Virus record (IMG/VR): IMGVR_UViG_3300005807_000006
Coordinates: 1 to 50,738 of that record
Reading direction: 5' to 3' (one strand)
Length of the DNA stretch: 50,738 nt
DNA from: a virus
Lineage: Duplodnaviria; Caudoviricetes
Shown: one piece after another, positions 21,426-38,842 of the stretch
How positions within the stretch are numbered: the first letter of the stretch is position 1
Layout of the letters: each line of letters starts with the position of its first letter
Notes under the pieces: generated by a model
Seen by the model: the letters and a program-made list of their open reading frames with translations, nothing else
What the model was told of the DNA's origin: nothing
The model's database searches: none
Program-made: the position numbers and the translations under genes

Positions 21426-21764
21426 ATGGCACGGAATATGAGTTTTGCAATGACCACAGACCAATTTAGAGCGCGAACCAAGACGGTTACTCGCAGGTTT
21501 GGATGGTGGTTTCTTAAGCCCGGCGACGAAGTGCGCGGGGTGGAAAAGGCAATGGGCCTGCAGAAAGGCGAGAGAATTAAACCGCTTGGAATGATACGCA
21601 TTGTTTCTGTGCGACCAGAGCTGCTGAACGCAATTACAAAGGACGATGTAATTAAAGAGGGGTTTCCAAATTGGACGCCAGCGCAGTTTGTGCAAATGCT
21701 GGTAGATCACTACCGCACTGATCCGGCTGCGACGGTAAACAGGATTCAGTTTGAGTACCTATAA
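21426..21764 (+). CDS. ASCH/PUA-like domain protein
   Basis: MSFAMTTDQFRARTKTVTRRFGW...LKPGD...EGFP; GAGG RBS; stop codon lies in TAAC of first attC-like site. Confidence 0.75.
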   Translation: MARNMSFAMTTDQFRARTKTVTRRFGWWFLKPGDEVRGVEKAMGLQKGERIKPLGMIRIVSVRPELLNAITKDDVIKEGFPNWTPAQFVQMLVDHYRTDPAATVNRIQFEYL

Positions 21765-21835
21765 CGGCTTTAATAAGCTGCTGAGTGAAACGAAGTCGGT
21801 TTGATTTATTTGTTATATTATTTGAGGATGGGATT

Positions 21836-22114
21836 ATGGGTACTGGATTATTAGTGAAGGGATATTTACATAAAACCCCTATTTACGAGAAGGGTGATTG
21901 GTGTACAGAAGTTTTTATCGGTGACAGATTATTAGTTGATTCAGGTGGATTTGGCAGCGAATTCTTGGAATACGCAAAAATTTATGAAGTAATTGATGAT
22001 AATGGATTAACAAAATTAAAAAGTGAAGACGGGACGATTATAGATGAACGGCACACGAAAAATACAATGCCGTTTTTCGTGAAACTTCTACACCCTGCAC
22101 CTAACGATAGATAA
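21836..22114 (+). CDS. Cassette ORF, hypothetical
   Basis: GAGGATGG RBS, ATG 21836; bounded by GTTATAT/ATATAAC. Confidence 0.65.
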   Translation: MGTGLLVKGYLHKTPIYEKGDWCTEVFIGDRLLVDSGGFGSEFLEYAKIYEVIDDNGLTKLKSEDGTIIDERHTKNTMPFFVKLLHPAPNDR

Positions 22115-22194
22115 ATATAACATCAAGTTAAAAAGCGCGTTTTGCATCGGCTTGAATACATTGTTAGGATGAAATTAACTAAGGAGTAAGGGGT

Positions 22195-22371
22195 ATGACA
22201 GATTATTACAGCCAGTTTCACCCGAAAGAAAGGACAGGAAAAGAGTGTAAAAAAGTTAAGTGCGAGAGATATAATGATTACTTGGCGTGGAAGCTAGGGA
22301 GCAGTGCTTTAGAGTATTGTATGGCGTGTAAAAACGCTCACGTATCACAGTATAAGAGCAGCAAAAAATAA
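22195..22371 (+). CDS. Cassette ORF, 58 aa Cys-containing
   Basis: Hand-translated MTDYYSQFHPKERTGKECKKVKC...; stop inside TAAC. Confidence 0.6.
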   Translation: MTDYYSQFHPKERTGKECKKVKCERYNDYLAWKLGSSALEYCMACKNAHVSQYKSSKK

Positions 22372-22453
22372 CGTCGTTTTTAACTTGCGCCATCACCAAA
22401 CTATAAATAGAGACGCTGAGCTTTCAGCGTCAAGTTGAAAAACCTTGTTATAT
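22366..22453 (-). other. attC-like recombination site
   Basis: Arms GTTTTTAACTTGCGC / GCGTCAAGTTGAAAAAC pair with one extra G and one extra T in the right arm. Confidence 0.8.
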
Positions 22454-22475
22454 GGCAGTGAATTAAAGGAAAGAC

Positions 22476-22703
22476 ATGAACATAGACTGCTCAAAAATAG
22501 CAAACAAAAGTGACTTGCTGGTATTAGTTGGGGTGGTGATTATTATTGCTCTTCTTGGCGTGGCAGTTATGTTAACAATTTATGCTGATAACTTTATTGC
22601 TGGATTTTTTAGCGCAACAATTACTTGGAAATGGCATGGCTGGATTTACAAGCCGATAGATAGAATGCTGGATAAATTGTGGCCACCAGACGATGCCATA
22701 TAA
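22476..22703 (+). CDS. Cassette ORF, membrane protein
   Basis: Hydrophobic segment; stop inside TAAC. Confidence 0.65.
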   Translation: MNIDCSKIANKSDLLVLVGVVIIIALLGVAVMLTIYADNFIAGFFSATITWKWHGWIYKPIDRMLDKLWPPDDAI

Positions 22704-22769
22704 CGACCAAGCTCAGTTGTTGCGACTGAGCAAAGCGAAAGAGCAATCAACTGGAGTGAATTGTTATGA
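22698..22769 (-). other. attC-like recombination site
   Basis: ATATAAC gaccaa GCTCAGTTGTTGC...GCAATCAACTGGAGT gaatt GTTATGA; extra G and T in right arm. Confidence 0.85.
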
Positions 22770-22972
22770 GATTTAATGTAGGAAAATATTATAAACACAG
22801 TGGCGGCGAAATGATGCACGTGTTAGTTGCCACCAAAACAAAAGTATATGGACAAACAATGATTGCTGAATTTAATGATGGCAGCTTTAGACCTGTTGGC
22901 AATGACGAGACAAGCTCTGTTAATTGGGTGGAGTTAGACGATATTACTGAATGGGATAATTTGTTCTCATAA
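22766..22972 (+). CDS. Cassette ORF, hypothetical
   Basis: ATG overlaps GTTATG; stop inside TCATAAC; GKYYKH motif. Confidence 0.7.
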   Translation: MRFNVGKYYKHSGGEMMHVLVATKTKVYGQTMIAEFNDGSFRPVGNDETSSVNWVELDDITEWDNLFS

Positions 22973-23044
22973 CGGCTTTAATAATCCGCTAAGTGTAACG
23001 AGATCGGTTTGATTTATTGGTTATATTATTTTGGAGACAAGTAA

Positions 23045-23221
23045 ATGAGTACGTTTGAAACAAAAGAAGAGTGCCTTCCTGTTGAAAAATTTATATGGGG
23101 TTGTATAGGTTTTGACTATAGGGAATTTGCAGGTATTAAAGAATTATCTTTTTCTGATCTATTGACATTACGAAGCTTAATTGATCGTCAGGCAAACGAT
23201 TTATTTAAGAACAGCGAATAA
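23045..23221 (+). CDS. Cassette ORF, 58 aa
   Basis: Hand-translated MSTFETKEECLPVEKFIWG...; GGAG RBS. Confidence 0.6.
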   Translation: MSTFETKEECLPVEKFIWGCIGFDYREFAGIKELSFSDLLTLRSLIDRQANDLFKNSE

Positions 23222-23348
23222 ATATAATACTAAGTTAAAAAGCGCGTCTTTTTGCGCCGTCCGCGTTTATGCAATTGTTATATTTTTTTTATTCGATTAA
23301 TACGTTTTGATTTTTAAAATATATGATATTTTTATTAATAGGTGATTT

Positions 23349-23528
23349 ATGGACGGGTATACGAAAGAAGTTATTGAAACTTTAGAAAATGAATTAAAAA
23401 CCACTGATACAACAGGTGAACTATTAATGCCGATTCTTGATGAAATAATAGCGGCTAGAAGCTGTGATGATAGATCGCTATTATGCGAAAAACTATTAAT
23501 TGAAGCACGAATATTCAACAGAATATAA
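23349..23528 (+). CDS. Cassette ORF, 59 aa
   Basis: Hand-translated MDGYTKEVIETLENEL...; AGGTG RBS; stop in left end of site. Confidence 0.6.
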   Translation: MDGYTKEVIETLENELKTTDTTGELLMPILDEIIAARSCDDRSLLCEKLLIEARIFNRI

Positions 23529-23596
23529 TACTAAGTTAAAAAGCGCGTCTTTTGCGTCTTTTTGAACGAGCAGTTATAAAGTTATTGGAGAATATA

Positions 23597-23821
23597 ATGA
23601 TTGAACCTAAGGGTTTGTTAAGTGGCGAGTTTTTTGAAGAGCAAACCATAATATGCCCCGAGTGTGGTGGTTTTGGATATATAGGAGACTATGAGGCAAC
23701 AAGCGAGCCTTGCGAATTCTGTGAAGGTCAGGGAGAATACGAACAAAAAGTACCGGTTTCATGGGCTACAATCAAAGAAATATACGCAATGGCTGTTAAA
23801 CATCTTGAGGATAAATCATGA
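23597..23821 (+). CDS. DnaJ-type zinc-finger small protein
   Basis: CPECGGFG...CEFCEGQG; GGAG RBS before ATG 23597. Confidence 0.65.
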   Translation: MIEPKGLLSGEFFEEQTIICPECGGFGYIGDYEATSEPCEFCEGQGEYEQKVPVSWATIKEIYAMAVKHLEDKS

Positions 23822-23979
23822 GCATTAATCAAGATCGAGAGTCTCTTATTTTAAAAATAAAAGAGTTGATTGAATTGTATGAAAAGCGGGAAAATGATGC
23901 ACATAGACCACCCTATGAGCAAGAGGCTTATGGGGTTGTAGCATACTCTCTAAGAAAAATAATTGAGGTTAAATCATGA
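23818..23979 (+). CDS. Hypothetical 53 aa
   Basis: Hand-translated MSINQDRESLILKIKEL...; ATGA overlap with previous stop. Confidence 0.55.
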   Translation: MSINQDRESLILKIKELIELYEKRENDAHRPPYEQEAYGVVAYSLRKIIEVKS

Positions 23980-24099
23980 GCATAGGGTCAGTCAAAAATG
24001 GACTTTAGGCAGTTTAAGAAGATTTAACGAGACAAGTTTAAATAGTTAGTGTTATAATACAAATGCGGTGTGGAAGTCGCTAAAAAGAAATTGTTAGAG

Positions 24100-24189
24100 A
24101 AGGTTTAAATTTTGTGATTCTGGTGGGTTTTTCTATCTAACAGTTTCACCCCTCTTTCTAACAGGGTCACAAATTTTAAGCCTTTTTTT
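24100..24189 (+). other. Long imperfect hairpin followed by T tract
   Basis: AAGGTTTAAATTTTGTGATTCTG...CAGGGTCACAAATTTTAAGCCTT. Confidence 0.55.
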
Positions 24190-24214
24190 ATGCCTGAAAT
24201 TTACGGCTTTCACA

Positions 24215-24391
24215 GAGTTTATATAGAGAGTGAGAATTCGTAGACTGATACGATAGTTGGGCTGCTGCGAGCAAGCGAACTTTACGGACTAAGTAGTATT
24301 TTATGCCATAACGGTATCCGGAATCTTTAGCAGATATGAACAAGGCTTGCATGGTGGAGATCAGTGCCACCCTCACTCTCTATATAAACTC
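24215..24391 (+). ncRNA. Candidate structured RNA closed by 20-bp perfect stem
   Basis: GAGTTTATATAGAGAGTGAG / CTCACTCTCTATATAAACTC; 3' hairpin GGTGG-AGATCAGTG-CCACC. Confidence 0.6.
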
Positions 24392-24467
24392 AATGGTTCT
24401 TATACCAGAATTGAACCCCATTCCTCAAAAATTGAATCCAAATGCCATGTAGGCTTTAAATACAGTA

Positions 24468-24618
24468 AAGTGTTTATATGTTAGCCGGTGGCGAAATTGG
24501 CAAATGCTGATACATTTGGAAATAGCTTGTTAACAGGTATGCGGTTCGATTCCGCTGTATCAATCAGTGAAAAGTTGAATATAGGTTCGAGTCCTATCCG
24601 GCTAACATATAAACACTT
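24468..24618 (+). ncRNA. tRNA-like RNA with nested second tRNA-like domain, in 21-bp perfect stem
   Basis: D arm TGGCGAAATTGGCAAATGC, two T arms (GCGGTTCGATTCCGC, ATAGGTTCGAGTCCTAT), no CCA. Confidence 0.65.
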
Positions 24619-24822
24619 ACCAAAATTTAATTAGTAAGATCTATTTATCATTACAACATTGAGTACCGTGGATAAAGCAGGTGAAGTTGATGTGCTAACT
24701 ATCATAAGTTAGATATCGGAGCGACAACTCTTAAAACTGTTCTGCATACTGTGAGTGATAAGAATATAGATTTAACCTTGTATATCAACACAAGGTCTAG
24801 TGACCGTATTATTTAAAAAAAG

Positions 24823-27800
24823 GTGAACAAGATGCGAGTTTATAAACATAAATGGGTGCAAGTCGGCAGTGGGACAGAAAATTACACTGGAGAATGTGTA
24901 TATAGAGATAAATGTCAAGAATGTGGAGTTCTATCTTGGCGCTGGAAGGACGGTAATAGACAGATAGACTTAAAAAATAGTAATAATTGCACTATAGTTA
25001 AAAATAAGGATAAATTAAATGATCTTGAAGATGAAGCAACATGTAAGCATGGTTTTTTGGTTGGTTGTGAAAAATGTTAGAACTTATTACGCCAATGTGG
25101 AGGCCAGCTACTAAGTCAAAAAACACTCTATTAGCCGCTGGTTACTCTCAAAAGCAACTTAACGACATTGGTAAAGTGTTCGTAGAAAGAAACTGTGGCA
25201 AAGAGATTGACGGAGCATCAAGCCTATATTCTGCAATGGTGAGAAGTTCTGGGTCAGCTCACAATATTAAGCCGCCAAAAATAGACCCGCCAAAAACCGT
25301 GGAGATTAAATCAGATGAAAAAATAGAAAGCGATACAAAGCAAGCTCAGGAAGTTAAAAGCCAAACAACCAAAATGTCAAAACATGAAGCAATCGCTTGG
25401 TATGATGGCAATAGGCTAGAGTAAGCGCGGTTTAGAGAAACTAAAACAGGATATGAAAAAATGACCTATATCGAACTTGAAAAACAATATTTTAACGATA
25501 AATTTGTAAGAATATATATCGACCACATAACAACCATCGATGATGGTATTTCAGAAAACGTTAGATTTACTAGGATTCATATGGTTTGCGGTTCGTTTGT
25601 TGATGTGAAGGAAGATTTTATTGAGGTGCTAGCTAAAATCGATCTAAAAAATAAAGAAGATCAACCAAATAATTAAAGGATAATAGAATGAAAGTTGAAG
25701 CTAGCAAAGTTACAAAAATAAAAATAACAGGTGTTAATAGATTAGACCCTGTGCATGTATTCCTAGAAGACATAGAAAAAGGCAAAGGTAGGATCACAAT
25801 AACTTGCTACAGCAAAGCGTGGTCTTCGTATTGGGGTGGTATAGGAGATAAATCTATCAGTGAATTCTTTTGTTCTTGTAATGATAATTATTTAACTGAA
25901 AATCTAGCTCCTGATCTTGATAGCACTATTTACGACATCGATAAAATAAGGCTGGATGCAGAGAATAAAAATATGGATTGTTATAGGGACGACCCCTGGA
26001 ACGATTTTGAGTTCATGGTAAAAATGTACGGCAATGATCAGTATAATTGGGACGACTCTCTACCAAAAACAACCAATCACAAATATTATTATTTATGTAG
26101 AATTATCAAAGCTGTTAAGGATGGTTTGAATGATATCAATAAAGCCTTAAGTAACGAAAAACCAGCATCACAAAACTAAGAGAGAACCATAAATTTTAAG
26201 GTAGAATTAATATGAATATTAATGATAAGGAGTTTAAATTTGAAATGAGCTATAAGGACTTATTCAAGCGGGCTGTAATTAATGCAAAACCTAAAACATG
26301 TGGAAGCGCACCGAAATGGGTAGCTGTCATGGATACTTTTTCTCTAGGCTCATATTACGCAATAGAATTATGCCGAGCATTGGATTTAGATCCTTATGCG
26401 AAGTCTTTAAACACTGTTAAATGCATAACATGCAACCCATAACTTAAATAAATTATGAATCACGAAATTAAAAACATGAAATTCTCAGGATTTGGAAGCT
26501 GGAAACAATGTAGCCATTGCGGTGCGACATTTTGGGAAAAGTTGTGGCACATAGGAGGCTACAAGAGTAAATACGAGCCACCATGTCGGTTAGATCTAAG
26601 TGAAGAATGGAAAAATAACGCAGAAATAGTAGACAATTAAACATAGGATATAATTATGAGTAAATTTGATGAATCATTTAAAGAGCCTTGGATGTTTAGT
26701 AATGGACATTTAATGTTGTCAGGCAAATATACTAAAGACGAAGCTTTGTCAATATTTAAGGATTATGACGGAGATGAGCATCTAGGTTTGGATGACTTAA
26801 AAAAGGATAGGGTTAGGTTTGGATTTACTCCAAAAGACATTGAAGACTTTGAAGATCTGGATGTTTCTTGCTGGTATTCAGGGGCAAGTGGGAAAGGTTC
26901 AAAGGAAGTCTGGTATGTTGAATAACTTAAACACAGGAGATAATTAAATGAGAACGCAAACGTTACACAGTAAAATAAATAGAGCATTTGAAGTATGGAA
27001 TACAAGCTTTGACAACACTTTGTTCATCGAAATACTGCCGAGAATTAAAAAAGAATGGCGTAAATATGTTAAAGAAGACGGTGATTCAAGGTCTGGAAAT
27101 GATACATACGGTTACGAAGAGAAAGAGAGCATCAAAAATAATATGATATATATTTCAGACCGATGGAGATGTTCATTTAGACTAAAATGGTTAATTGACG
27201 GTATTGAAAATGGCAAAATATAAATAGGAGATATTAAATGATAAAAATATTTAAATACACGCTTGATAAATTAATACCTTATGTACAACCAATTGAAATG
27301 CCTATTAATGCAAAAATAATTTCAATGAAGAATCAGTGTGAAGAGATCGTATTGTGGGCAGAGGTGAACGCTGTCAATGCTTTAGAGATTAGATCTTTTG
27401 TAGTATTGGCTACTGGCGATACTAAGCTAGATGATCCTCTAAAATATCATGCAACATTGCAATTTTTAGAGGGCAATTATGTTGTACATATTTATGAACT
27501 AATAGGAGATAATTAAGTGAGTGAACGTGAAATATATTTACCCATAATAACTGACGAAATGTTTGAGATGTTTAACGAAACTTGCTTAATGGAGTGGAGT
27601 AAAGAGTTAAATAAACCTAGCTGGACTCAAATATCAGTTGAATTTTTAGCAGTTTTATTAACTAAAGAACATGGAGAATAATACAAATGAGAAAAGTAAC
27701 TATATTTGAATGGAAGGATATTAAAAAGGAGTTCGAGAAATGAGTGAATTAAAAATAAAATTTAAATCAGAAAAAGAAAAGGATGAGTTTATCAAGTGGT

Positions 27801-28246
27801 TTTTTAGTGATGCAAATATGCAAAATATGGATTTCTATTTTGGCAAAAAAACAATTGTTTACAACGGTAAAGACGAGATGAAAATAGGATGAGTAAATCA
27901 AAAATACCAAATGCAATAATACAATTTAAGTTAGATCTTAAAAATATTTACGGAAAAGATCAAACAGAACAGGTAAAAGGTGAAGCGATAGCAATTAGAT
28001 ATTGTATCCGGTATTTGGAGCGATTAAACAAAGGAGAAATAAATAATGAGTGATTTAATATTTGCTAAAACAATGATAACAACTAAACCGAAAATAGAAT
28101 ACATCCCAAAAGGCTCTATGTGCATGTCATGCTATCGTCAAAACTTAAATTGCAGTAGCTACCCTTTTTCAAAGATGCCGGTTATCTACCAATCGCTCGG
28201 TTATTTCCACGTTAGATGTACTTTTTACGAGAGATTAAATGATTGA
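24823..28246 (+). CDS. Run of small hypothetical phage genes (24823, 25074, 25461, 25688, 26212, 26455, 26656, 26948, 27238, 28046 and shorter ORFs)
   Basis: Tightly packed co-oriented ORFs with AGGA/GGAG RBS; no attC-like sites here. Confidence 0.6.
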
Positions 28247-28889
28247 ATTGATAAATATAGACTGTATGGAATATATGAAAAATTGCAAAGATAACGCGTT
28301 TGATTTGGCTATTGTTGATCCTCCATACGGAATAGGTGAGAGCGGAAAAACCAACAAATCTAGGAGTAAGCTTGCGACAGCAAAAGATTATAAGTCTTAT
28401 TGTGGAGATGATTTAAAACCGCCAGGCAAAAGTTATTTTATAGAATTAAAAAGAGTTAGCAAAAATCAAATAATATGGGGTGCAAACCACTTCATGCAAA
28501 ATATATGCTTAGGATCGAGTTGTTGGATTGTGTGGGATAAGCAAACAGGAAATTCAGATTTTGCAGATTGCGAACTAGCCTACACAAGCTTTAATACAGC
28601 AGTTAGAAAATATACGTTCCAATGGTCTGGAATGCTTCAGGGAAATATGAAAAATAAAGAATTTAGAATCCATCCGAATCAAAAGCCAGTTAACTTGTAT
28701 CAATGGTTGTTAAAATATTATGCAAAAGATGGTGATAGGATACTAGACACCCATCTAGGCTCTGCATCTAGCGCAATAGCTGCTCATTACGGCGGTTTTG
28801 ACTTTGTAGGGTGTGATCTAGATGAGTATTATTTTAAAGCTGCAAAAGAAAGGTTTAACGACCAGACCAGACAAAAGGCAATGTTTTGA
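28239..28889 (+). CDS. Orphan DNA methyltransferase (N6-A/N4-C, beta class)
   Basis: IVDPPYG catalytic motif, HPNQKP, ILDTHLGSAS SAM-binding motif. Confidence 0.9.
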   Translation: MIELINIDCMEYMKNCKDNAFDLAIVDPPYGIGESGKTNKSRSKLATAKDYKSYCGDDLKPPGKSYFIELKRVSKNQIIWGANHFMQNICLGSSCWIVWDKQTGNSDFADCELAYTSFNTAVRKYTFQWSGMLQGNMKNKEFRIHPNQKPVNLYQWLLKYYAKDGDRILDTHLGSASSAIAAHYGGFDFVGCDLDEYYFKAAKERFNDQTRQKAMF

Positions 28890-29075: not shown

Positions 29076-29104
29076 TTGACGGGCAATGAACACAAGCGCA
29101 TACT
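29076..29104 (+). promoter_or_regulatory. Sigma70-like promoter
   Basis: TTGACG-17 nt-CATACT. Confidence 0.6.
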
Positions 29105-29132
29105 ACTGCATATCAAATAATAAGGCTTTAAA

Positions 29133-29826: not shown

Positions 29827-30444
29827 ATGAAAACTACATTAAATGAAATATTAAAGCACTATCCTTGCGGCATTCATAGCAGTGGGAAAAATGGGTTTAG
29901 TTTGCTACTTAAAAACCTAGGGAAAACCGAATCTGATGACGAGCCTGTTGATCTAATGGATATTTTAAAGTCAAACGGGATAGAGGATGCAGTTTGGGCT
30001 TTGCAATGCTTTGATTATTTAGATTATTGTTTATTTAATGCGGATATGTTGGAAAGTACTTTAGATATTTTCGACGAAGAATTAAAAGCAGTCGCTGAAA
30101 AAACAATAGCTACAATTAAGTCGTACAAATCTGGCAAGATAACAAAAGATGTTTTTATTAAAGAATGGCAAGCCGCCGACGCCTACGCCGATGCCTACAC
30201 CATCGCCGATATTTTTATCAAACCAAAATCCACTATATCTATCTACGCCTACGCCATCGCCATCGCCGATGCCATCGCCGATGCCTACTCCTACGCCTAC
30301 ACCACCACCACCGCCTACACCGCCTACGCCATCGCCACCGCCGCCAACGACTACGACTACGACTACGCCTACGCCTACGCCGATCAACTAAAAGTAATAG
30401 AAAAAATATTCATCAAGCATTTTGGACGTAAAAATGAAGCTTAG
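29827..30444 (+). CDS. Hypothetical protein with Ala/Tyr/Asp/Thr low-complexity tract
   Basis: MKTTLNEI...PC...G...LL..LGKT..DDEP..L..IL.SNG..DA.W N-terminus then (AY/AD/AI)n. Confidence 0.7.
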   Translation: MKTTLNEILKHYPCGIHSSGKNGFSLLLKNLGKTESDDEPVDLMDILKSNGIEDAVWALQCFDYLDYCLFNADMLESTLDIFDEELKAVAEKTIATIKSYKSGKITKDVFIKEWQAADAYADAYTIADIFIKPKSTISIYAYAIAIADAIADAYSYAYTTTTAYTAYAIATAANDYDYDYAYAYADQLKVIEKIFIKHFGRKNEA

Positions 30445-30528: not shown

Positions 30529-31548
30529 ATGAATGATTTAGTACATGTAGCACCAGCAAATACTAACCAAGTATTATCTTTGGCTCAAAAAGATTTTTCT
30601 TTAGTTTCCATTGACCAAAAAATAAAATGGGAAAAAGAATTTAATTTTGCATTACAAATATTGAGAAAAAACAAGACTCTCAACGATGTGGCTTTGGAAA
30701 ATCAACAAAGCTTAAAAGATGCAATTATTAATGTATCAGCCATCGGTATAAGCCTAAATCCAGCATTAAAACACGCTTATTTAGTGCCTAGAAAAAAGTC
30801 AGTATGTTTGGATATATCTTATATGGGCTTGTTACACTTAGCTTGCATGAGCGGATCTATTGATTGGGGTCAGGCTAAAATAGTTAGAGAAAAAGACACA
30901 TATACTAGTTTAGGTATTGATAAAGCCCCTCGGCATGAATTTCAGGCATTTGGAGATAGAGGCGGTATAGTAGGCGTTTACTGCACTGTAAAAACAAATA
31001 ACGGAGACTATCTAACTGAAGAAATGTCTATTAATGCTGTTTATGATATTAGAGATCGGTCGATGGCTTACAAATCAAGCTATGGCCCTTGGTTAACAGA
31101 TCCTGAGCAGATGATAAGGAAGACGGTAGTAAAAAGAGCGTCAAGTTATTGGCCTAAAGTAGAACGTCTTGATAATGCAATAAACATGCTTAACATCGAA
31201 AACGAGGAAGGAATAGATTTTCAAAATAACAAGCCAAAAGGAAAGAGTGGTAATTGGAAGGCTGGGGTTAATCCTAACGTGCTTCCACACAAATTAAGGG
31301 AAGTTTTTTTTAACATTAATGAGGCATTTGAAGCAGAAGACTTGCAAACCGTCCTAGAAAAATTTAAAGAGTTTGGCATAATAGAGGAGATGTCCGCAGT
31401 TTGGAAATGTTTTGCTAGTGACGAAAGATCTAAAATAAACAAATACAAAAACAGCGAAGAATATACAGAAATAACAAATTCACAAAAAGTAGAATACTTA
31501 GATCAAGATGAATTATTACATCTTTGCAAAGCTTTTAATTTTCACTAA
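30529..31548 (+). CDS. recT: RecT/Redbeta-family single-strand annealing protein
   Basis: GISLNPALKHAYLVPR, LDISYMGL, PW.TD.EQM.RKTVVKRASSYWP. Confidence 0.85.
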   Translation: MNDLVHVAPANTNQVLSLAQKDFSLVSIDQKIKWEKEFNFALQILRKNKTLNDVALENQQSLKDAIINVSAIGISLNPALKHAYLVPRKKSVCLDISYMGLLHLACMSGSIDWGQAKIVREKDTYTSLGIDKAPRHEFQAFGDRGGIVGVYCTVKTNNGDYLTEEMSINAVYDIRDRSMAYKSSYGPWLTDPEQMIRKTVVKRASSYWPKVERLDNAINMLNIENEEGIDFQNNKPKGKSGNWKAGVNPNVLPHKLREVFFNINEAFEAEDLQTVLEKFKEFGIIEEMSAVWKCFASDERSKINKYKNSEEYTEITNSQKVEYLDQDELLHLCKAFNFH

Positions 31549-31575
31549 AACAGACAGAGTAACTTTGATAAAATC

Positions 31576-32255: not shown

Positions 32256-32256
32256 C

Positions 32257-33172
32257 ATGAAAGTTCCAGAAAAAAACATTACTTACGCATCCATAATATT
32301 TATTTTATCTATAGTTATTGTAATATTATTTTCTGATGCAAGCATAAAAAAAGAACAACAATATCAAACAACATGCGAAGCAAAAGGGCTTGAGCAAAAA
32401 CATTTTGAATATCAAGTTCAAGATAAAACTTTTAAAATATGGTGTAAATAATGAAATGTCCTGAATGTGAAATCAACAATGCAGTAGACCTTGATTGTGA
32501 TAAATGCGATGCCAGCGGCTTGATCGCAAAAGACAATGAAGACATTGAATGTTATGATTGTGGCGGTCTAGGCTACATAGACGGATGGCATGAATGTTTA
32601 GGTTGTGGACACCAGTTTGAAGAATAATATCAGAAATGTCGGCAAATTGCAGACCTATATTAGGTAGATGAGGATCAACAAATGAAAGCTTACATGGTAT
32701 TTGCAGGTTGCCCTATTGACGGATGTATCCTAGTTTATGCTGAAAGAGCGACAAAAGCTAGATCCATTGGATATGCTGAACTATTTAGTTGGGATTATGT
32801 AGAAACATCCGCGACCAGAAAGCCGGAATTCGATAAATATTATTCTGGCAAATGTATTATAGTAGAGAACAGTGAATTGCCGGAAGGTGTTGAATTTTAT
32901 ACTGAAATAGATTGTTGGTGAAAATAACTAATGAGGATTAAAAAATGAGTTCTTGTGAGAAATGCTGGCGCGATGCGTGTGGAGACCCTGAAAAATATGG
33001 TCTACTTGTTAACTTAAGAAAAGAAAACCCTTGCACGTTAGAAGAGCAAGCGGGTAAAGATGCGGCTTTATGTAAAAGTTGTGAAAGAAAAACAGTTCAC
33101 CAAATTTGTAATTTTTGCATCAATCGAAAATGTGAAATGTTTGCCGAGACAATAAAGAGGATTAACAAGTGA
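32257..33172 (+). CDS. Small hypothetical ORFs (32257, ~32451 Zn-finger, 32682, 32945)
   Basis: Short co-oriented ORFs, several Cys-rich. Confidence 0.5.
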
Positions 33173-33534
33173 ACGGAACGCCGAATAAGCTACAAAAAGA
33201 CTGGCATCAATATTTGAGAGATCGGGGCTGTTGTGTGCAAGATGAAATGTCTTACAGTCCATTATCAATACACCATATAATTGGTGCTAAAGCAAAACTT
33301 AAAGGCGTGAAAAAATTTGGCGAAAAATACGTTATTTGCTTAAGCTATTGGTGGCATCAAGATGGTCGAAATGGCGCAGCTAGACACATCAATAAAAAAG
33401 CGTTTGAGCTGGAAACTGGAAAAACTGAAAAAGAGTGGTTTATTGATTCGATGCAAAAATATAAGGACGAATACGGTCACATACATCTCGTAATGACCGA
33501 AGAAGAATATCAGATAATCAAGGCGAGAGCATGA
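33169..33534 (+). CDS. Ref/DUF968-like HNH-related protein
   Basis: GCCV...IHHI...VICL...HQ...RH pattern. Confidence 0.55.
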   Translation: MNGTPNKLQKDWHQYLRDRGCCVQDEMSYSPLSIHHIIGAKAKLKGVKKFGEKYVICLSYWWHQDGRNGAARHINKKAFELETGKTEKEWFIDSMQKYKDEYGHIHLVMTEEEYQIIKARA

Positions 33535-34022
33535 GTCACACTAACCGATTTGACGCTCGCAGAGATGGAAATGAAAAAGAAATCGTGGAGGTTTTTGAAA
33601 GAATGGGACTTAGCGTTTATCGATTAGATCAGCCCCTAGATCTGTTAATTGGCTATGACAAGCGCAATTACCTAGTTGAAGTAAAAATGCCGGGTAAGAA
33701 TTTAAACGATAATCAAGTGGAATTTGTAGCTAATTGGAAAGGGCAATTTATTATCATAAGAACGATTGAGCAAGCGATAAAATTTGCTCACGAAATAAGA
33801 AAAATTACAAAGCGAGGTCAAAAGAGTCAAATGAATACACATGGATTAGATAGCCATTATTTCAATAAAAAATTAAAATGCATGGTTAGAGATATTGAAT
33901 GCTACACGCCAGACGAAATGTTTAATGAGCTAAGTCGGTTGATGATGGTTGCAGCAATGCAAGCTGGAATAAAAGCCACAATCAAAGTTAAATTTATTTC
34001 TAAAAAAAGTAAGGAGGCATAA
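33531..34022 (+). CDS. PD-(D/E)xK nuclease (VRR-NUC/resolvase-like) with C-terminal extension
   Basis: RDGNEKEIV...PLDLLIGY...LVEVK...L.D.Q..F...W. Confidence 0.7.
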   Translation: MSHTNRFDARRDGNEKEIVEVFERMGLSVYRLDQPLDLLIGYDKRNYLVEVKMPGKNLNDNQVEFVANWKGQFIIIRTIEQAIKFAHEIRKITKRGQKSQMNTHGLDSHYFNKKLKCMVRDIECYTPDEMFNELSRLMMVAAMQAGIKATIKVKFISKKSKEA

Positions 34023-34291
34023 TGATTGAATTATTAGTTAGCGTAAACAAAAAGCCTGTTGATTTGGGCAATGGAATTACACGGCATAGCTCTATAAATA
34101 AATTATGTGCGATTGATAAAATCAGAATGACTTATAACGGCCACTATTACGCTCACTTAGTAAACAAAGAGAGTGACGCTCCATTCAACTCAGGAGGAGA
34201 ATGGGGGTCGTGGGTTGGTTTTTTTAAGAAAGAAAATAAGCATGTGCGACTACCTATTATCAAAATTGAAAGGCAAGAAGTAGATGTATAA
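34022..34291 (+). CDS. Hypothetical, stop in first attC-like site of array 2
   Basis: AAGGAGG RBS; TAA within GTATAAC. Confidence 0.65.
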   Translation: MIELLVSVNKKPVDLGNGITRHSSINKLCAIDKIRMTYNGHYYAHLVNKESDAPFNSGGEWGSWVGFFKKENKHVRLPIIKIERQEVDV

Positions 34292-34327
34292 CAATTAAGT
34301 TAACTTGCTTGAATGGAGCGCAGCGTA

Positions 34328-34618
34328 ATGAAAATCAAAGTTAAACGCCTTGTTATCTTTTTACATTGCTGGTTTTTCGGGCATGTGCCAGATGATAAAA
34401 ACACAGTATTTGATACAGATGAATATACCTATGGCTGGCATATGATGTGTAAGCGTTGCGGAATATTGGATATAGAACAGCACGAACTTATGACTGGCAG
34501 CAGAAGTTATAAGGTTAAGCAATTTGTGATTTTCTGGCTCTATCGTAGATGGTGTCCGGAGCCATGCAAAGACTGCGGTAGTCGATTCGGCAAGCACGAT
34601 AACTGCATACCGTTTTGA
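34328..34618 (+). CDS. Cassette ORF, Cys/His-rich (HCWFFGH, CKRC, CKDC)
   Basis: GGAG then ATG 34328 inside the site. Confidence 0.65.
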   Translation: MKIKVKRLVIFLHCWFFGHVPDDKNTVFDTDEYTYGWHMMCKRCGILDIEQHELMTGSRSYKVKQFVIFWLYRRWCPEPCKDCGSRFGKHDNCIPF

Positions 34619-34673
34619 AAGATAACGGCTTTAATAAGCAGCTAAGTGCAACGAACGACATGAAGGAATTGTT

Positions 34674-34907
34674 ATGCAAATTGAATTGATGAGGAGAACC
34701 GCAACGGCATTGATGCCAGGGCAATCCATAAAAATTTCCCGAGACAAGATGGTAACGGCGGCTGAAGGTATTCTTTACTCTCTGCTATTTTCTGTACGCA
34801 GAGTGGATATTAAGATCTTTGCGGAACAGGTGGCGCAAAACTGGGGGGTTACGATGACTGAGGACGCTATGACGGGCGAATGGACAATGTTCAAGCCGCA
34901 TGCATAA
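34674..34907 (+). CDS. Cassette ORF, hypothetical
   Basis: Begins in GTTATGC, ends in GCATAAC. Confidence 0.7.
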   Translation: MQIELMRRTATALMPGQSIKISRDKMVTAAEGILYSLLFSVRRVDIKIFAEQVAQNWGVTMTEDAMTGEWTMFKPHA

Positions 34908-34997
34908 CGCCATGCTCAGGAGCGCAAAAAGCACCCACTGAACTTTAAATTTAACTAAAAACCGCGGCGTTTTTTGTGTCGCCTGGAGCTAATTGTT

Positions 34998-35198
34998 ATG
35001 TATGAATGCACAGCAAAGCAGTACTGGAAAAAGATTTACAGGGTAATGCGCGTGGCAATACGCGAAGCAAATAAGGCCAGCATGGATGTGATGATCTACG
35101 GCACGGGCGCAGTAATGATCCCTAAAGATGGTGGCGACCCAAAACACGTCCCTCTTGCTAATTTGGACATGAATAATTTAACTGATCATAGGGAATAA
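34998..35198 (+). CDS. Cassette ORF, hypothetical
   Basis: ATG in GTTATG with GGAG 9 nt upstream; stop in TAAC. Confidence 0.65.
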   Translation: MYECTAKQYWKKIYRVMRVAIREANKASMDVMIYGTGAVMIPKDGGDPKHVPLANLDMNNLTDHRE

Positions 35199-35276
35199 CG
35201 ACCTTGAGCTAACCTGTGAGCGGTAGCGAATCCGGTTAAGTGATTGGTTATACAGATTTAATACGAGGATTATAAA

Positions 35277-35555
35277 ATGAAAATTAATTTACAGGTTAAT
35301 ATTGATGGAATGTACTGGAGTGGTGGTGCTGGTATTGAGGTGCCGGAATTATATAGGAAATGTTTTGAGCCAATGAAAACAGGTGATGAGCCGCTTGTCG
35401 CTATGGTTACTGGCGAGATTATGGAGCAAGAAGCTAATATTGTAATGAAAACAAGAAGTGATGCCGCCGAGATATTAGGGCGAGAATTAGCAGAGCTAAT
35501 AGTTCGTGAGATGAAAGCAAAAGATACGCACAATGGTTACGAGAAGGCTGTATAA
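35277..35555 (+). CDS. Cassette ORF, hypothetical
   Basis: GAGGA RBS; bounded by GTTATAC/GTATAAC. Confidence 0.7.
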   Translation: MKINLQVNIDGMYWSGGAGIEVPELYRKCFEPMKTGDEPLVAMVTGEIMEQEANIVMKTRSDAAEILGRELAELIVREMKAKDTHNGYEKAV

Positions 35556-35611
35556 CGACCTTGAATTAAAAAGCGCCGTTTTTTGGCGTCTTTTTGAATG
35601 ATTTGTTATGT
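35550..35611 (-). other. attC-like recombination site
   Basis: GTATAAC gaccttga ATTAAAAAGCGCC...GGCGTCTTTTTGAAT gattt GTTATGT; extra G and T in right arm. Confidence 0.85.
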
Positions 35612-35628
35612 GATTTACGGAGGACATT

Positions 35629-35820
35629 ATGACAGAAGACAGAATTGAAAAAATACAAAAATTAAACAGCGAGATAAAAAACTTTAAGGACTGCTACTGC
35701 GGCATTGAATTGTGGGGTGGTAGAGATACTTTTGTAAGTGCCGAGGTATTGATGTATTTTTTGATCGAGAATCCACACTTCCAAGAGATCGCGGATAATA
35801 TTAATAAAATGGACACGTAA
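35629..35820 (+). CDS. Cassette ORF, hypothetical
   Basis: GGAGG RBS; stop in TAAC. Confidence 0.7.
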   Translation: MTEDRIEKIQKLNSEIKNFKDCYCGIELWGGRDTFVSAEVLMYFLIENPHFQEIADNINKMDT

Positions 35821-35892
35821 CGATTAAGTTAAAGGGCGCGGCTTTATCGCGTCCATTTTGAACGCTCTGTATAACAAAGCGAGGAGATAAAG

Positions 35893-36057
35893 ATGATTTT
35901 AAAAGATGCGTATGATGAAGGCGGAAAGCTTCTTGGTGATGAATGTGTAGATTTATCAGGATTACAGGAAGACACTAAGAAAGCGATAATGCAATTAATT
36001 TACCTTGATGAAACTGTAGATATTTATAATGACGCGCTGAATAAGAAGACTACATAA
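35893..36057 (+). CDS. Cassette ORF, 54 aa
   Basis: Hand-translated MILKDAYDEGGKLLGDECVDL...; GAGGAG RBS. Confidence 0.6.
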   Translation: MILKDAYDEGGKLLGDECVDLSGLQEDTKKAIMQLIYLDETVDIYNDALNKKTT

Positions 36058-36138
36058 TGACCATATTCAGAAGTGAACGAGTGCCAGCGAGTGAATCTGT
36101 TGGAGCTATTTGTTATATTTTTTTAAGAGGGTTTATAT

Positions 36139-36339
36139 ATGATAATTATTGATAAAGGCGTGGCCATGCCTACCGAAAATGGACGCTGCAAATACCCGTG
36201 GAAAGATATGGAGGTTGGTGATTCTTTTTCACTACCTAAGTTAAGTATCTCAACAGGCGCGGTAAATGAACGATATAAGCCGAAGAAGTTTGTTGCTCGT
36301 AAAGACGGCGATGGTTATCGCGTGTGGCGGATTAAGTAA
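36139..36339 (+). CDS. Cassette ORF, small phage DNA-binding-like protein
   Basis: KYPWKDMEVGDSF...G.RVWR motif familiar from small phage proteins. Confidence 0.65.
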   Translation: MIIIDKGVAMPTENGRCKYPWKDMEVGDSFSLPKLSISTGAVNERYKPKKFVARKDGDGYRVWRIK

Positions 36340-36422
36340 ATATAATACTAAGTTAAAAAGCGCGTCTTTTGCGTCTTTTTGAATGACCGGTTATTTAATT
36401 TAAATAAATGCGAGGAAATAAA

Positions 36423-36704
36423 ATGAAATTACCTATAAATTATGAGAATCTGCACTACACAGAAAGAAGGGCTGTGCGTGAGGAGTATGTTAAGCAGCAA
36501 GATGGGAAGTGCAGCCATTGCGGAGAGCCGCTAAATTGTAAGCCTGCTGGTAATATAGTAAATAAACATGTAGATAAAAAACTATTCCCAACAGGCTTTT
36601 TTAAGTGGCCAGTGCATCTGCACCATAGCCATAATACAGGTATGACTATTGGAGCGGTGCATAACCATTGTAATGCGGTGCTGTGGCAATACCACGGCGA
36701 ATGA
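36423..36704 (+). CDS. Cassette ORF, HNH/endonuclease VII-like
   Basis: QDGKCSHC...HLHHSHNTG...HNHCN. Confidence 0.7.
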   Translation: MKLPINYENLHYTERRAVREEYVKQQDGKCSHCGEPLNCKPAGNIVNKHVDKKLFPTGFFKWPVHLHHSHNTGMTIGAVHNHCNAVLWQYHGE

Positions 36705-36814
36705 CACATAACGACATTTAATAACCTGCGGCATAAATAGCTTGCAGTAAACACGATGAGGGTTGACCGTCTGGTTGATTTTATTGTTATATTTTTTAAT
36801 TGGAGGATTTTAAA

Positions 36815-37045
36815 ATGAGTGAAGATTTTATAAGGAATAGCTTGGTAACTGCTTTTGTATGCGTTGAGTGCGGTAGCAATTTAAGTCTATCTTATAAAAG
36901 CAAGAAAGGCAGCGGTAGAATGGTAGATGATGAGCCAACAGGCGCGGCAATGGTTAAAAACGTGATTTACATTTACCCTTGTGAAAAATGCCTAGAGCCT
37001 GCCATTAAAGCTAAACAGGCAGTAATGGCTTTAATGGAAATATAA
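36815..37045 (+). CDS. Cassette ORF, Zn-ribbon
   Basis: CVEC...CEKC; GGAGG RBS; stop in ATATAAC. Confidence 0.65.
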   Translation: MSEDFIRNSLVTAFVCVECGSNLSLSYKSKKGSGRMVDDEPTGAAMVKNVIYIYPCEKCLEPAIKAKQAVMALMEI

Positions 37046-37140
37046 CATCAAGTTAAGAAGCGGTTAAATATGCAATGACGAGGGACTCAAATTCTGGTGG
37101 GAAAGTCAGAGTTTATAATTTTTAACTGAGGAAATAGAAG

Positions 37141-37380
37141 ATGAAATTTGAGCCAAATGATTTTTTTGGAACAGTACATGTACAGGTTAAACACAGCAAG
37201 TTACTTGCTAATGGAGAGCCTAACAATTTTTGGCGAAATGCACTCTATGTGTGTCAGCAAGATGATGCACATGTAGTGATTTATGCAGATGGCACAAAAG
37301 AAGTCCTAAAACAAAGAACGAAAATACGAATGACACATGACGGCTTTAATAAGCCGCTAAGTGAAACGAAGTCGGATTGA
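37141..37380 (+). CDS. Cassette ORF reading into downstream site
   Basis: GAGG RBS; C-terminus THDGFNKPLSETKSD encoded by site 37335-37394. Confidence 0.6.
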   Translation: MKFEPNDFFGTVHVQVKHSKLLANGEPNNFWRNALYVCQQDDAHVVIYADGTKEVLKQRTKIRMTHDGFNKPLSETKSD

Positions 37381-37412
37381 TTTATTGGTTATATTTTAAA
37401 TGAGGATTAATT

Positions 37413-37625
37413 ATGGGTTATGAAAAACCAGAAGCGGATGAGTGGGTTCAGCCGGTAAGAAAAGATTACAAGTTAGCCTGCTGTGATTGCGGGTTAGTGC
37501 ATAACATGGATTTTAGAATTAAAAAAGGCCGGATTCAATTTAGGGTACGGCGCAATAATAGAGCTACTGCTGGTATGCGGGTCGGGATGGGGCTAAGAAA
37601 GAAAAAAGACGGGACATGGCTTTAA
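37413..37625 (+). CDS. Cassette ORF (CCDCGLVH motif)
   Basis: GAGGA RBS; motif familiar from small phage proteins. Confidence 0.7.
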   Translation: MGYEKPEADEWVQPVRKDYKLACCDCGLVHNMDFRIKKGRIQFRVRRNNRATAGMRVGMGLRKKKDGTWL

Positions 37626-37706
37626 TTGATACCTAACGTCAAGTTAAAAAGCGCGTTTAGCGTCCGATTTTGAACGCCTTTTTATGCGGGGTAAAAGGAT
37701 AAACAA

Positions 37707-37964
37707 ATGCAACAAACAAAACTAAGCTCTTTAATTGAGTCATTTATAAATGTATTAATTGGGTATGGAGTAGCTTTAATTTCACAATTATTAATTTTCC
37801 CGATGTTTGGTATTCATGTTTCTCTAAGTACAAATTTATATATAGGCGCATGGTTTACGCTTATCAGTTTAATTCGCAGCTACATTATACGGCGATGGTT
37901 TAATGCAAAATTACATAATGCGGCGCAAGCTTTAGCTAAACAAGGTGCCGAACGATTCAGATAA
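37707..37964 (+). CDS. Cassette ORF, two-TM phage membrane protein
   Basis: SLIESFINVLIGY...SLIRSYIIRRWFN. Confidence 0.7.
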   Translation: MQQTKLSSLIESFINVLIGYGVALISQLLIFPMFGIHVSLSTNLYIGAWFTLISLIRSYIIRRWFNAKLHNAAQALAKQGAERFR

Positions 37965-38028
37965 CCAGCAGGCGGGTCTTATCGACTGTCTGCAATTGCC
38001 TTGTTATGTGCAGGGCATGGAGGTAAAA

Positions 38029-38220
38029 ATGAACGAAGAACAAACAGAAATGGAAAAATGCACAATCTACACGCGCCGAGGTGATAGGTATGAGATTAAG
38101 TGCAGACTTGGATTGTGGAGTGTTGATGCACCATACGGGTTGGCTTTGATAAATGAGGCTAATCACTATTTTCAGCAATACAAAGCTGATGGAGAATACA
38201 ACAAGTTACTTGATACATAA
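38029..38220 (+). CDS. Cassette ORF, hypothetical
   Basis: GGAGG RBS; bounded by GTTATGT/ACATAAC. Confidence 0.65.
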   Translation: MNEEQTEMEKCTIYTRRGDRYEIKCRLGLWSVDAPYGLALINEANHYFQQYKADGEYNKLLDT

Positions 38221-38249
38221 CGATCTTGAGCTAACAGGAGAGGAACGAA

Positions 38250-38501
38250 ATGAACAAAGTAAATGTAGAGACGAATCCAGTTAAGCGGCATATTATGCGT
38301 AGCGATAAAGGAATATTGGATTGGCTGCAAAATGAATGCGGTGGATCGTTTAGCTGTAAGCGACAAAGAGACCCTTTTGTCGCTTCACCCACCTTTGGTA
38401 ACCTAGACGAGTGGCAGATATTTACCATTCCTTCGCAGCACGTTAAAGGCGTAAGCATAAGGGATGCTTTTAGCAATGCAATGAATAAGTGTGGCGCATA
38501 A
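38250..38501 (+). CDS. Cassette ORF starting inside the site loop
   Basis: AGGAGAGG RBS in loop; stop in GCATAAC. Confidence 0.6.
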   Translation: MNKVNVETNPVKRHIMRSDKGILDWLQNECGGSFSCKRQRDPFVASPTFGNLDEWQIFTIPSQHVKGVSIRDAFSNAMNKCGA

Positions 38502-38579
38502 CGGACATGCTCAGAAGTGAGCGAGCGACAGCGAGTGAATCTGCTGGAGCTACTGGTTATATTTTTATTGGAGAATGTT

Positions 38580-38765
38580 ATGTGTAAATATATTGAGGTT
38601 AAAAATGGTGCGCCACATCCCCGCACAAGATGGTCAAGCGAGTGCGGGTTTGATCTAGTTTTAATGCAAGGATATACACCTAATTTTGGCAAGCAAGAAG
38701 AATATGATAAAAAAATATTACCCGCTGGTGGGTGCATGAAATGTAAAGCCGAGATTGAAACATAA
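38580..38765 (+). CDS. Cassette ORF, Cys-containing
   Basis: GGAG RBS; stop in ACATAAC. Confidence 0.6.
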   Translation: MCKYIEVKNGAPHPRTRWSSECGFDLVLMQGYTPNFGKQEEYDKKILPAGGCMKCKAEIET

Positions 38766-38842
38766 CATCAAGTTAAAAAGCGCGTCTTTTGCGTCTTTTT
38801 GAACGACCGGTTATTTAATTTAAATAAATGCGAGGAAATAAA

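Follow-up and report, generated by a model that had tools for sequence, protein, structure and literature searches.

The 50,738-base virus record IMGVR_UViG_3300005807_000006 (Duplodnaviria; Caudoviricetes), the whole of which was analysed and is called the window below, carries two arrays of attC-like sites of the kind known from integrons, and in both arrays the sites are oriented throughout in reverse with respect to the genes. In our judgement the two arrays are probably genuine integron-type clusters of attC sites lacking an integrase (CALINs), of a mirror-image kind, in a complete podovirus-like phage, with the integrase acting in trans. The sites have the anatomy of attC and a uniform polarity, and no integrase was found in the genome; by sequence comparison they are homologous to bacterial attC sites and to phage attC sites that have been recombined experimentally, and the same layout is present in further phages, including one that encodes an integron integrase itself. 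CALINs of phages were already known (PMC9892861); a full-text literature search found no publication describing a systematic reversal of cargo relative to attC in phages.

According to PMC5027507, the bottom strand of attC reads 5'-RYYYAAC (R') ... GTTRRRY (R''), with an extrahelical G and T near L'', cleavage separates A from C in R' on that strand, and sites that IntI1 uses efficiently have a 6-bp stem between the extrahelical G and T. Reading of the window sequence reveals 23 intergenic TAAC...GTTAT sites, seven in an array at 21759-23580 and sixteen in an array at 34286-38816, every one of them flanked by genes on the + strand. A 5' box is recognisable in all 23 (18 of TAAC type, four of TAAT type and one TGAC), and 19 have a 3' box of GTTA or GTAT type, the remaining four being half-sites or degenerate. 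The stop codon of the upstream open reading frame (ORF) is the TAA of the 5' box at 16 of the 23 sites; it lies 6-11 nt before the site at six, and at one the ORF overlaps the site by 40 nt. The sites divide into at least four sequence families, named A to D, and site-to-site BLAST matches within the window are direct in 17 of 17 cases and inverted in none. With clusters of 7 and 16 sites, the arrays fall under the definition of a CALIN, which asks for at least two successive attC sites away from any integron integrase. Searched in six frames, the whole record gave no match to the integron integrase model TIGR02249, there is no Phage_integrase (tyrosine-recombinase) domain among the window ORFs scanned, and a complete integron, with intI, attI and the promoter Pc beside the array, does not occur in the window genome.

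Polarity was assessed by a free stem alignment, a fixed template and a covariance model. The free alignment was calibrated on integrons oriented by their adjacent integrase in two phages listed in PMC9892861, and in these controls, the integron of Vibrio anguillarum phage Va_90-11-286_p16 (MK672802, L004) and the integron and CALIN of Shewanella phage M16-3 (MZ568829, L005), the unpaired bases fall in the 5' arm of the top (coding) strand at 14 of 14 and 14 of 14 sites, in agreement with the textbook description of attC in PMC5027507. In the window, by the same alignment, a G bulge stands in the 3' arm of the + strand, 2-5 bp in, at 14 of the 23 sites, and a T bulge follows 5-6 bp after the G at nine; among the remaining sites, one has a bulge in the 5' arm only, one has bulges in both arms, six are without a usable stem and one offers no candidate. 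The template (3 bp, bulge, 5 or 6 bp, bulge, 3 bp) was applied to 20 sites, with the bulges fitting better in the 3' arm of the + strand at 16, in the opposite arm at three and equally at one; the rows at 36053 and 37632 are unreliable, their 3' anchor having been mis-set. Exactly G and T, written (G,T) below, are the bulged bases in 12 of these 20 sites, and the spacing of 6 bp between them matches the rule given in PMC5027507 for efficient IntI1 sites. The best fits for the spacer between the R and L boxes are 4-7 nt, and of the 12 (G,T) sites, 10 have a 3' spacer of 5 nt. A strict scan found six G/T-bulged sites in the window; in 20 shuffles, sites with any 3'-arm bulge numbered 0.65 on average and 2 at most.

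The covariance model, R1, was trained on 20 canonical top strands taken from the controls, which represent two site families, and was run on the window with filters off. It returned 27 matches at E ≤ 10, 21 of them on the - strand, and at E ≤ 1 all 15 matches are on the - strand, 14 inside the arrays (10 at E < 0.1) and one outside; the six matches on the + strand all have E of at least 3.2, and two of them are fragments of 19 nt. The lone match at E ≤ 1 outside the arrays (18153-18270, - strand, E 0.2) lies inside an 801-aa tail-fibre-like gene and is probably a chance match. The strand calls of R1 held on arrays that had not been used for training: in the Vibrio-type array L021, 12 of 12 run opposite to intI and on the strand with the long ORFs, and in the bacterial contig L099, 7 of 7 are on the ORF strand (+). 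Under default filters, no more than three of 22 integrase-bearing viral loci yielded attC sites to R1; the model is biased to Vibrio- and Shewanella-like sites, and its misses carry no meaning.

An earlier reading of the window, made from the sequence only, had proposed that all of its attC-like sites are inverted relative to their genes. The inversion is borne out by the three approaches, which return the same polarity, and the canonical arrangement, with the gene on the top strand and attC downstream, is found at none of the orientable window sites; the word 'all' goes too far, since about seven of the sites are hybrids, half-sites or too degenerate for orienting. Model matches on the + strand, which that reading had named as the outcome contrary to its claim, did not materialise when the attC model strand was compared with the coding strand, the R1 matches at E ≤ 1 all being on the - strand. 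Its example at 22698-22769 is matched by R1 on the - strand (E 0.0055), and the arms that it quoted, with a 5-nt spacer beside GTTA, are present.

The polarity would be ordinary if these were bacterial cassettes in canonical orientation whose real genes lie on the - strand, where some long ORFs are indeed present (among them 38231-38737, 168 aa, and 36455-36754, 99 aa). Against this, none of the six long - strand ORFs that were tested has a family match, and the 168-aa ORF spans a site, whereas + strand ORFs are preceded by ribosome-binding sites, have their stops in the boxes and match phage families strongly: 36408-36704 (+) matches phrog_14729 at E 6.6e-35, 37707-37964 (+) matches Pfam DUF7220 at E 5.7e-30, and 38828-39001 (+) matches phrog_21598 at E 6.4e-13. 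The array genes are really on the + strand, and they belong to phage gene families, unlike typical bacterial cargo; we give genes on the - strand almost no credence. The sites, with R1 matches and template fits where obtained, and the genes of the two arrays are as follows.

21759..21818 (+): s1, attC-like, type B, the + strand having the bottom-strand form; R1 on the - strand, E 0.0053; (G,T), 0.75 paired; the TAA in the 5' box ends the upstream ORF.
22115..22169 (+): s2, hybrid of a type A 5' arm and a non-matching 3' arm (T-CGGCTT-G-AAT-ACATT-GTTAGGA); R1 on the - strand at 22099-22169, E 0.007; 3' arm with a G bulge; template tie.
22366..22453 (+): s3, structurally complete; R1 on the - strand, E 6.5e-5; G then T, 6 bp apart; template 1.00.
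22698..22769 (+): s4, with the start codon of the next gene within GTTATGA; R1 on the - strand, E 0.0055; (G,T), template 1.00.
22967..23026 (+): s5, type B; R1 on the - strand, E 0.087; (G,T), 0.67; 89-91% identity to s1 and s18.
23222..23283 (+): s6, hybrid of a type A 5' half and an unrelated 3' half; no R1 match and no usable stem.
23523..23579 (+): s7, type A, 5' box ATATAAT; G/T bulges 6 bp apart, template 1.00; terminator-like on the + strand; no R1 match at E ≤ 10.
34286..34330 (+): s8, remnant at the left edge of array 2; R1 34286-34358 on the - strand, E 0.0037, by way of a GTTAT inside the next ORF; no stem.
34620..34677 (+): s9, its 5' half of type B and its 3' half diverged; R1 on the - strand, E 0.61; template ambiguous.
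34902..35001 (+): s10, the longest and best-scoring site; R1 on the - strand, 42.5 bits, E 1.4e-7; (G,T), 0.83.
35193..35253 (+): s11, type D, sharing a loop motif with attC1 of phage PH101; R1 on the - strand, E 3.4.
35550..35611 (+): s12, type A variant; R1 on the - strand, E 0.021; G and T bulges; terminator-like on the + strand.
35815..35875 (+): s13, type A variant, 3' box GTATAAC; G bulge in the 3' arm; reverse complement aligns with bacterial attC top strands.
36051..36118 (+): s14, type C with a degenerate 5' arm; R1 36024-36118 on the - strand, E 0.74; 89% identity to s22 over 56 nt.
36340..36396 (+): s15, type A, recombinant, its left part as in s6/s7 and its right part and leader as in s23; (G,T); template 0.92.
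36706..36792 (+): s16; R1 on the - strand, E 0.022; (G,T), 0.92.
37040..37075 (+): s17, half-site with a type A 5' half only; 22113-22137 and 37038-37062 are 96% identical.
37335..37394 (+): s18, type B, 5' box ACATGAC, the upstream ORF extending 40 nt into the site; (G,T), 0.83; no R1 match.
37631..37687 (+): s19, type A with a degenerate 3' box; R1 on the - strand, E 0.0021; aligns with bacterial attC.
37959..38009 (+): s20, boxes present, stem poor; R1 on the - strand, E 1.9; no stem by free alignment.
38215..38250 (+): s21, half-site with a type D 5' half only, from the sequence; no free-alignment candidate.
38496..38562 (+): s22, type C; R1 on the - strand, E 0.13; (G,T), 0.75.
38760..38816 (+): s23, type A, structurally complete; R1 on the - strand, E 1.0; G/T 6 bp apart; template 1.00.
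39010..39045 (+): remnant half-site bordering array 2 on the right (CACTAAC ACC AAGTTAGAAAGCAC), from reading of the sequence and comparison with the phage locus L156.
21785..23979 (+): array 1 genes, eight small cassette ORFs of 53-109 aa with visible ribosome-binding sites and only weak family matches.
34313..39001 (+): cassette genes of array 2, sixteen small ORFs with homologues in other phage contigs.

The type A sites have relatives in bacteria. A scan of metagenome contigs for the type A motif gave 12 matches, one of them a real look-alike (L086), and a scan of species genomes gave two more, in a Sulfuricaulis metagenome-assembled genome (MAG) and an Ectothiorhodospiraceae MAG. Aligned with the attC top strands of L086 and two gammaproteobacterial MAG contigs, the reverse complements of the window type A sites show a mean column identity of 70% and 25 invariant columns. 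In L086, those flanking genes that Pfam supports (glyoxalase, FMN reductase, cytochrome c) run on the other strand from the bulged one, as in the canonical arrangement; in L099, C/A bulges occupy the 5' arm of the + strand in 4 of 4 sites, and a + strand ORF ends at most 6 nt from each. The genome that holds L099 encodes two integron integrases, scoring 458 and 432 bits (TIGR02249 cut-off 265), and a site next to one of these faces away from intI, in line with expectation. The type A family thus has the canonical arrangement in bacteria and the reverse arrangement in the window phage. In IMG/VR, the type A pattern gave only two chance matches in coding sequence and the type B pattern none.

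The closest experimental parallel comes from Qi et al. 2023 (PMC9892861), who reported CALINs in virulent phages including Pseudoalteromonas phage PH101, whose attC1 and attC2 were recombined with attI1 by IntI1; the bottom-strand frequencies did not differ from those of attCaadA7, and the mean top-strand frequencies were lower. The primers for the PH101 attC sites are printed in the supplement of that paper, and we infer from its aadA7 control, in which the forward primer has the T and G bulges on the 3' arm, that the PH101 forward primers hold the bottom strand. The attC1 motif is on the - strand of NC_029094, as are 19 of the 19 annotated genes of the region, and the PH101 coding strand has four sites of the form TAAC-G...CTT-GTTAT. 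R1 makes four matches on the non-coding strand of this gene-dense region (E 1.6e-7 to 5.2e-5) and a fifth, weak one (E 0.18) elsewhere in the locus. The published PH101 CALIN therefore has the inverted layout, with the sense strand as its more recombinogenic strand; no remark that the bottom strand of PH101 is the coding strand was found in the passages of PMC9892861 that were consulted. Window types B, C and D align with the PH101 sites, coding strand to coding strand, and the closest site overall to s11 (35193) is PH101 attC1, with an identity of 0.70. By this analogy, the proposal of the sequence-only reading that the sense strand is the recombinogenic one gains indirect experimental support. 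In PH101 (L106, NC_029094, - strand), two different attC sites are each directly preceded by a copy of a block about 90 nt long (…ttaatttagggattgtagctaacactacagag…gaaacgtataac), at locus coordinates of about 6470-6380 and 5070-4975, and attC2 together with a 60-nt leader is repeated before two different genes.

These relationships bear on the suggestion that the sites are a phage-specific hairpin family, of a promoter-stem-loop kind or resembling repetitive extragenic palindromes, unrelated to integrons and convergent with attC. Such a family would account for sites that are intergenic, repeated and located in variable regions absent from L003, the closest relative found for the window phage, and for the missing integrase. 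It is at odds with the homology of the sites to attC of a bacterial genome encoding IntI and to the validated PH101 sites, with their being matched by a model trained solely on attC sites adjacent to integrases, and with the promoters, which are not enriched. We regard convergence as very improbable.

Two cassette proteins used as queries in IMG/VR led to 24 and 58 loci, where the homologues are for the most part ordinary phage genes that have no flanking sites. L114 has an array of TAAC...GTTAT sites on the coding strand, which R1 matches on the - strand in 3 of 3 cases, and its homologue of the 36423-36704 gene ends in the same TGACACATAAC as the window gene; in alignments the two genes also appear to share the downstream site, but a nearest-neighbour test finds no excess over the general family resemblance. 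L156 likewise has TAAC...GTTAT sites on the coding strand, with 3 of 3 R1 matches on the - strand, and a homologue of 38843-39001 that was identified by eye. For the other cassette proteins, tblastn found no homologue across the loci, L132-L189 not being among those searched. An IMG/VR search with an IntI alignment yielded 22 loci with full-length relatives of the integrase. One of these, L026 (IMGVR_UViG_3300044614_001381), encodes an IntI of 343.8 bits against the TIGR02249 cut-off of 265, set among phage helicase, nuclease and primase genes, and has four sites upstream with regular polarity towards intI; its N6_N4 methylase gene (E 9.8e-42) and other well-fitting ORFs are on the bulged strand, co-directional with intI, helicase and primase. 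At L026 7254-9662, the ribosome-binding site and start codon of each cassette gene lie inside the attC loop, which makes part of the 3' arm coding. L006 was considered as an inverted locus and rejected, being probably canonical with repeated non-coding units. Phage TJE1 is canonical, with bottom-strand motifs on the - strand, genes on the + strand and weak R1 matches on the + strand, and the inverted layout is thus not universal in phages. The sequence-only reading had suggested a distinct phage-specific class of cassettes, which holds in part: the layout does recur in PH101, L114, L156 and L026, while TJE1 is an exception to the polarity and the attC families are common to bacteria.

Traces of exchange are preserved inside the sites. 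Positions 23219-23252 are identical to 36337-36370 (s6 and s15), and 23522-23566 to 36339-36383 (s7 and s15), in both cases including the upstream stop codon, and 36350-36428 matches 38770-38848 (s15 and s23) over 79 nt at 98.7%, including the leader and ATGAAA. The idea that each site travels with its downstream gene fits the 3' part, leader and ATGAAA that s15 shares with s23, and does not fit the 5' part of s15, which is as in s6/s7 up to and including the upstream stop. Homology-driven shuffling has certainly occurred, and a candidate agent of such exchange among sites is encoded between the two arrays, where a methylase gene also lies.

30529..31548 (+): RecT-family single-strand annealing protein (Pfam RecT, E 4e-27).
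28239-28889: N6/N4 DNA methylase.

The sites could accordingly be seen as derived from attC and no longer serving an integrase, working instead as short homologous linkers with a 5' leader between which genes are swapped by RecT-helped recombination during co-infection, some of them perhaps doubling as weak terminators or mRNA hairpins. The traceable exchanges lie inside sites (s15 with s6/s7 on the left and s23, leader and start codon on the right), hybrids and half-sites exist, PH101 likewise repeats a block of site and leader before different genes, RecT is encoded between the arrays, and the window genome has no integrase. As to a second function, four type A sites qualify weakly as intrinsic terminators (a GC-rich stem followed by a T run) on the + strand, and such motifs total 16 against 10.8 ± 3.4 in shuffles, no clear enrichment; sigma-70-like promoter motifs are not enriched, with 71 against 69.7 ± 7.9 expected. 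Linkers would moreover have no need of a uniform polarity, though direct repeats alone would give it. Also against linkers is that asymmetries of use only to an integrase (G and T 6 bp apart, the 5-nt spacer, the AAC/GTT boxes) are kept in 9-12 sites across four site families, which argues for continued selection by an integrase, and that the homologous PH101 sites are efficient IntI1 substrates according to PMC9892861. We hold the linker explanation to be unlikely, if clearly the strongest of the alternatives.

Several points nevertheless weigh against mirror-image CALINs served by an integrase. None of the recombination joints that can be traced within the window is a TAA/C joint, all of them lying inside sites; s2 (22115) and s6 (23222) are hybrids of unrelated arms, and there are three half-sites (s17, s21 and 39010-39045). 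Such joints, hybrids and half-sites are not products of an IntI-type crossover and are made by homologous or illegitimate recombination, and homology-driven shuffling may be the main process today. With some seven of the 23 sites hybrid, halved or too degenerate for orienting, part of the array may be decaying, and some sites, at 51-56 nt, are slightly below the range of 57-141 bp given in PMC5027507. No attC-like sites occur in the closest relative, L003, which leaves no direct comparison of before and after. On the side of the parallels, the ORFs of L099 have no Pfam match on either strand, their gene strand following from ORF fit alone, and a survey of ORF fit over the 22 integrase-bearing viral loci was dropped as evidence, being unreliable in GC-rich DNA, so that L026 is the only one with domain support.

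Because of their anatomy, their homology and the PH101 experiments, the window sites are likely to be substrates of an integron integrase on the folded + strand. In each cassette of such mirror-image CALINs, the strand that folds and is recognised by the integrase would be the sense strand of the gene, on which a 5'-RYYYAAC box, a spacer of 5-6 nt, 3 bp, the G bulge, 6 bp and the T bulge would follow one another. The hairpin would stand in front of its gene, with the first box of the next hairpin usually providing the stop codon. Under the canonical A/C cleavage rule of PMC5027507, crossover would fall at TAA/C, a cut that would explain why 16 of the 23 stops are on that TAA, and the mobile unit would be C-attC-leader-gene-...TAA. 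With no integrase in the genome, the enzyme would come from the chromosomal integron of the host or from a co-infecting phage, and would add, remove and reorder accessory genes, while homologous recombination between similar sites, which the phage RecT could promote, would also have shuffled site halves. Genes on the bottom strand would be read with the rest of a one-directional phage genome, as may be the case in L026, whose cassettes, intI and replication genes all read in one direction. Inside a bacterial integron the same cassettes would be antisense to Pc, an expectation already voiced in the sequence-only reading that follows logically from the geometry.

The orientation of cassettes is central to the integron model, in which selection of the bottom strand keeps the cargo facing away from Pc and expressible. 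Consistently reversed cassettes in phages would mean that integron-type recombination serves the plasticity of phage genomes under a different expression logic, and that the phage and bacterial cassette pools are partly insulated from each other; annotation pipelines which assume that the gene precedes attC would mis-assign the phage cargo. A wider and tentative proposal, which we consider unlikely, is that phages maintain a separate pool of cassettes, the mirror image of the bacterial pool, with the sense strand recombinogenic, IntI borrowed and folding favoured on the lagging strand. If so, the cassettes would be expressed by read-through in the phage and be silent, as antisense to Pc, in a bacterial integron; integrase-less phages such as the window phage, PH101 and L114 would borrow the IntI of the host or of another phage; the accessory genes traded may include counter-defence genes; and co-directional replication would put the recombinogenic strand on the lagging-strand template, favouring its folding and making phage arrays more dynamic than chromosomal ones. 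GC skew in the window is positive on the + strand over 1-42 kb, a measure that does not separate replication from transcription.

The window is an entire IMG/VR virus record with an estimated completeness of 98%, and it is a complete podovirus-like, marine-type phage. Its structural genes are of podovirus type (major head protein at 1273-2115, tail tubular proteins at 3575-7381, large terminase at 46983-48392 and portal at 48624-50189), and the closest relatives of the portal protein, at less than 30% identity, are mostly from marine Pelagibacter, Vibrio and Alteromonas phages. L003 has core genes in common with the window phage, and the slot occupied by array 2 measures 5.5 kb in the window phage and 1.5 kb in L003; for window 21000-25000, no near-identical phage record was present in the collection searched. 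A whole-window Rfam search with gathering thresholds returned no family. Nearly all genes are on the + strand, the only - strand block (42955-45376) consisting of about 10 small ORFs without a family match and diverging from the terminase operon at about 45.4-45.5 kb. Positions 37-285 are identical (100%) to the last 249 bases (50490-50738), which indicates terminal redundancy or circular permutation, and the IMG/VR label of the record is 'linear'; positions 1-39 are the exact reverse complement of 49244-49282, resembling an assembly artefact at the start of the contig. A 205-aa ORF at 29827-30444 (+), also without a family match, has a middle part (about 30165-30385) of successive GCC/TAC/GAT/ACC-type codons, which encode Ala-Tyr-Asp-Thr-Ile repeats. 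The 124 nt at 24482-24605 (+), in a stretch that lacks ORFs (23980-24822), contain two T-arm-like motifs and, when the 1-kb region is searched by E-value, match the Rfam tRNA model at 32.1 bits, the gathering score being 29; ARAGORN finds no tRNA there, and the whole-window gathering search is also without it. A perfect 21-nt inverted repeat (24468-24488 and 24598-24618) flanks this segment, and in L003 a comparable stretch devoid of ORFs, at about 5500-6060, carries the inverted motif 'gtgtttatatg...catataaacac'; the window segment may be a tRNA-like element that is interrupted or nested, or else an origin.

Among known systems, the PeSL promoter-stem-loop modules of T4-type phages are short repeated intergenic modules that flank small accessory genes and provide homology for modular shuffling. 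The window sites are like them in being repeated intergenic modules that offer homology for shuffling, and unlike them in having the attC asymmetry, bacterial attC homologues and no promoter signal; promoters of PeSL type were not found at the sites, one sigma-70-like match overlapping a site in a scan that does not cover phage-specific promoters. Compared with bacterial integron cassettes, as in the sedentary chromosomal integrons of Vibrio and Shewanella and the MAG arrays L099 and L100, the window cassettes have the same architecture, type A being of the same family, and in both the stop codon is often inside the RYYYAAC box. Bacterial cassettes, however, carry the gene on the top strand and attC downstream of it, so that the non-coding strand is the bulged, recombinogenic one (28 of 28 control sites), whereas in the window the gene is on the bulged strand, and the window genome has no intI, attI or Pc. 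PH101 and the window phage are alike in having attC sites without an integrase, in a lytic-type genome and between small genes of unknown function, with the same polarity relative to the genes; the window has about 20 sites in two arrays, where the minimum for a CALIN in PMC9892861 is two. L026 shares with the window phage the position of its cassette genes on the bulged strand, co-directional with the phage genes and with stops just before the 5' box, and differs in its own IntI, in starts inside the attC loop and in GC-rich sites of unrelated sequence. The 'inverted integrase' integrons, a category of IntegronFinder (PMC13323075), also depart from the standard relative orientation; in that type, as the category is described there, intI is flipped relative to attC and the cassettes are canonical, whereas in the window and in L026 it is the cargo genes that are flipped, the attC sites of L026 keeping their regular polarity towards intI.

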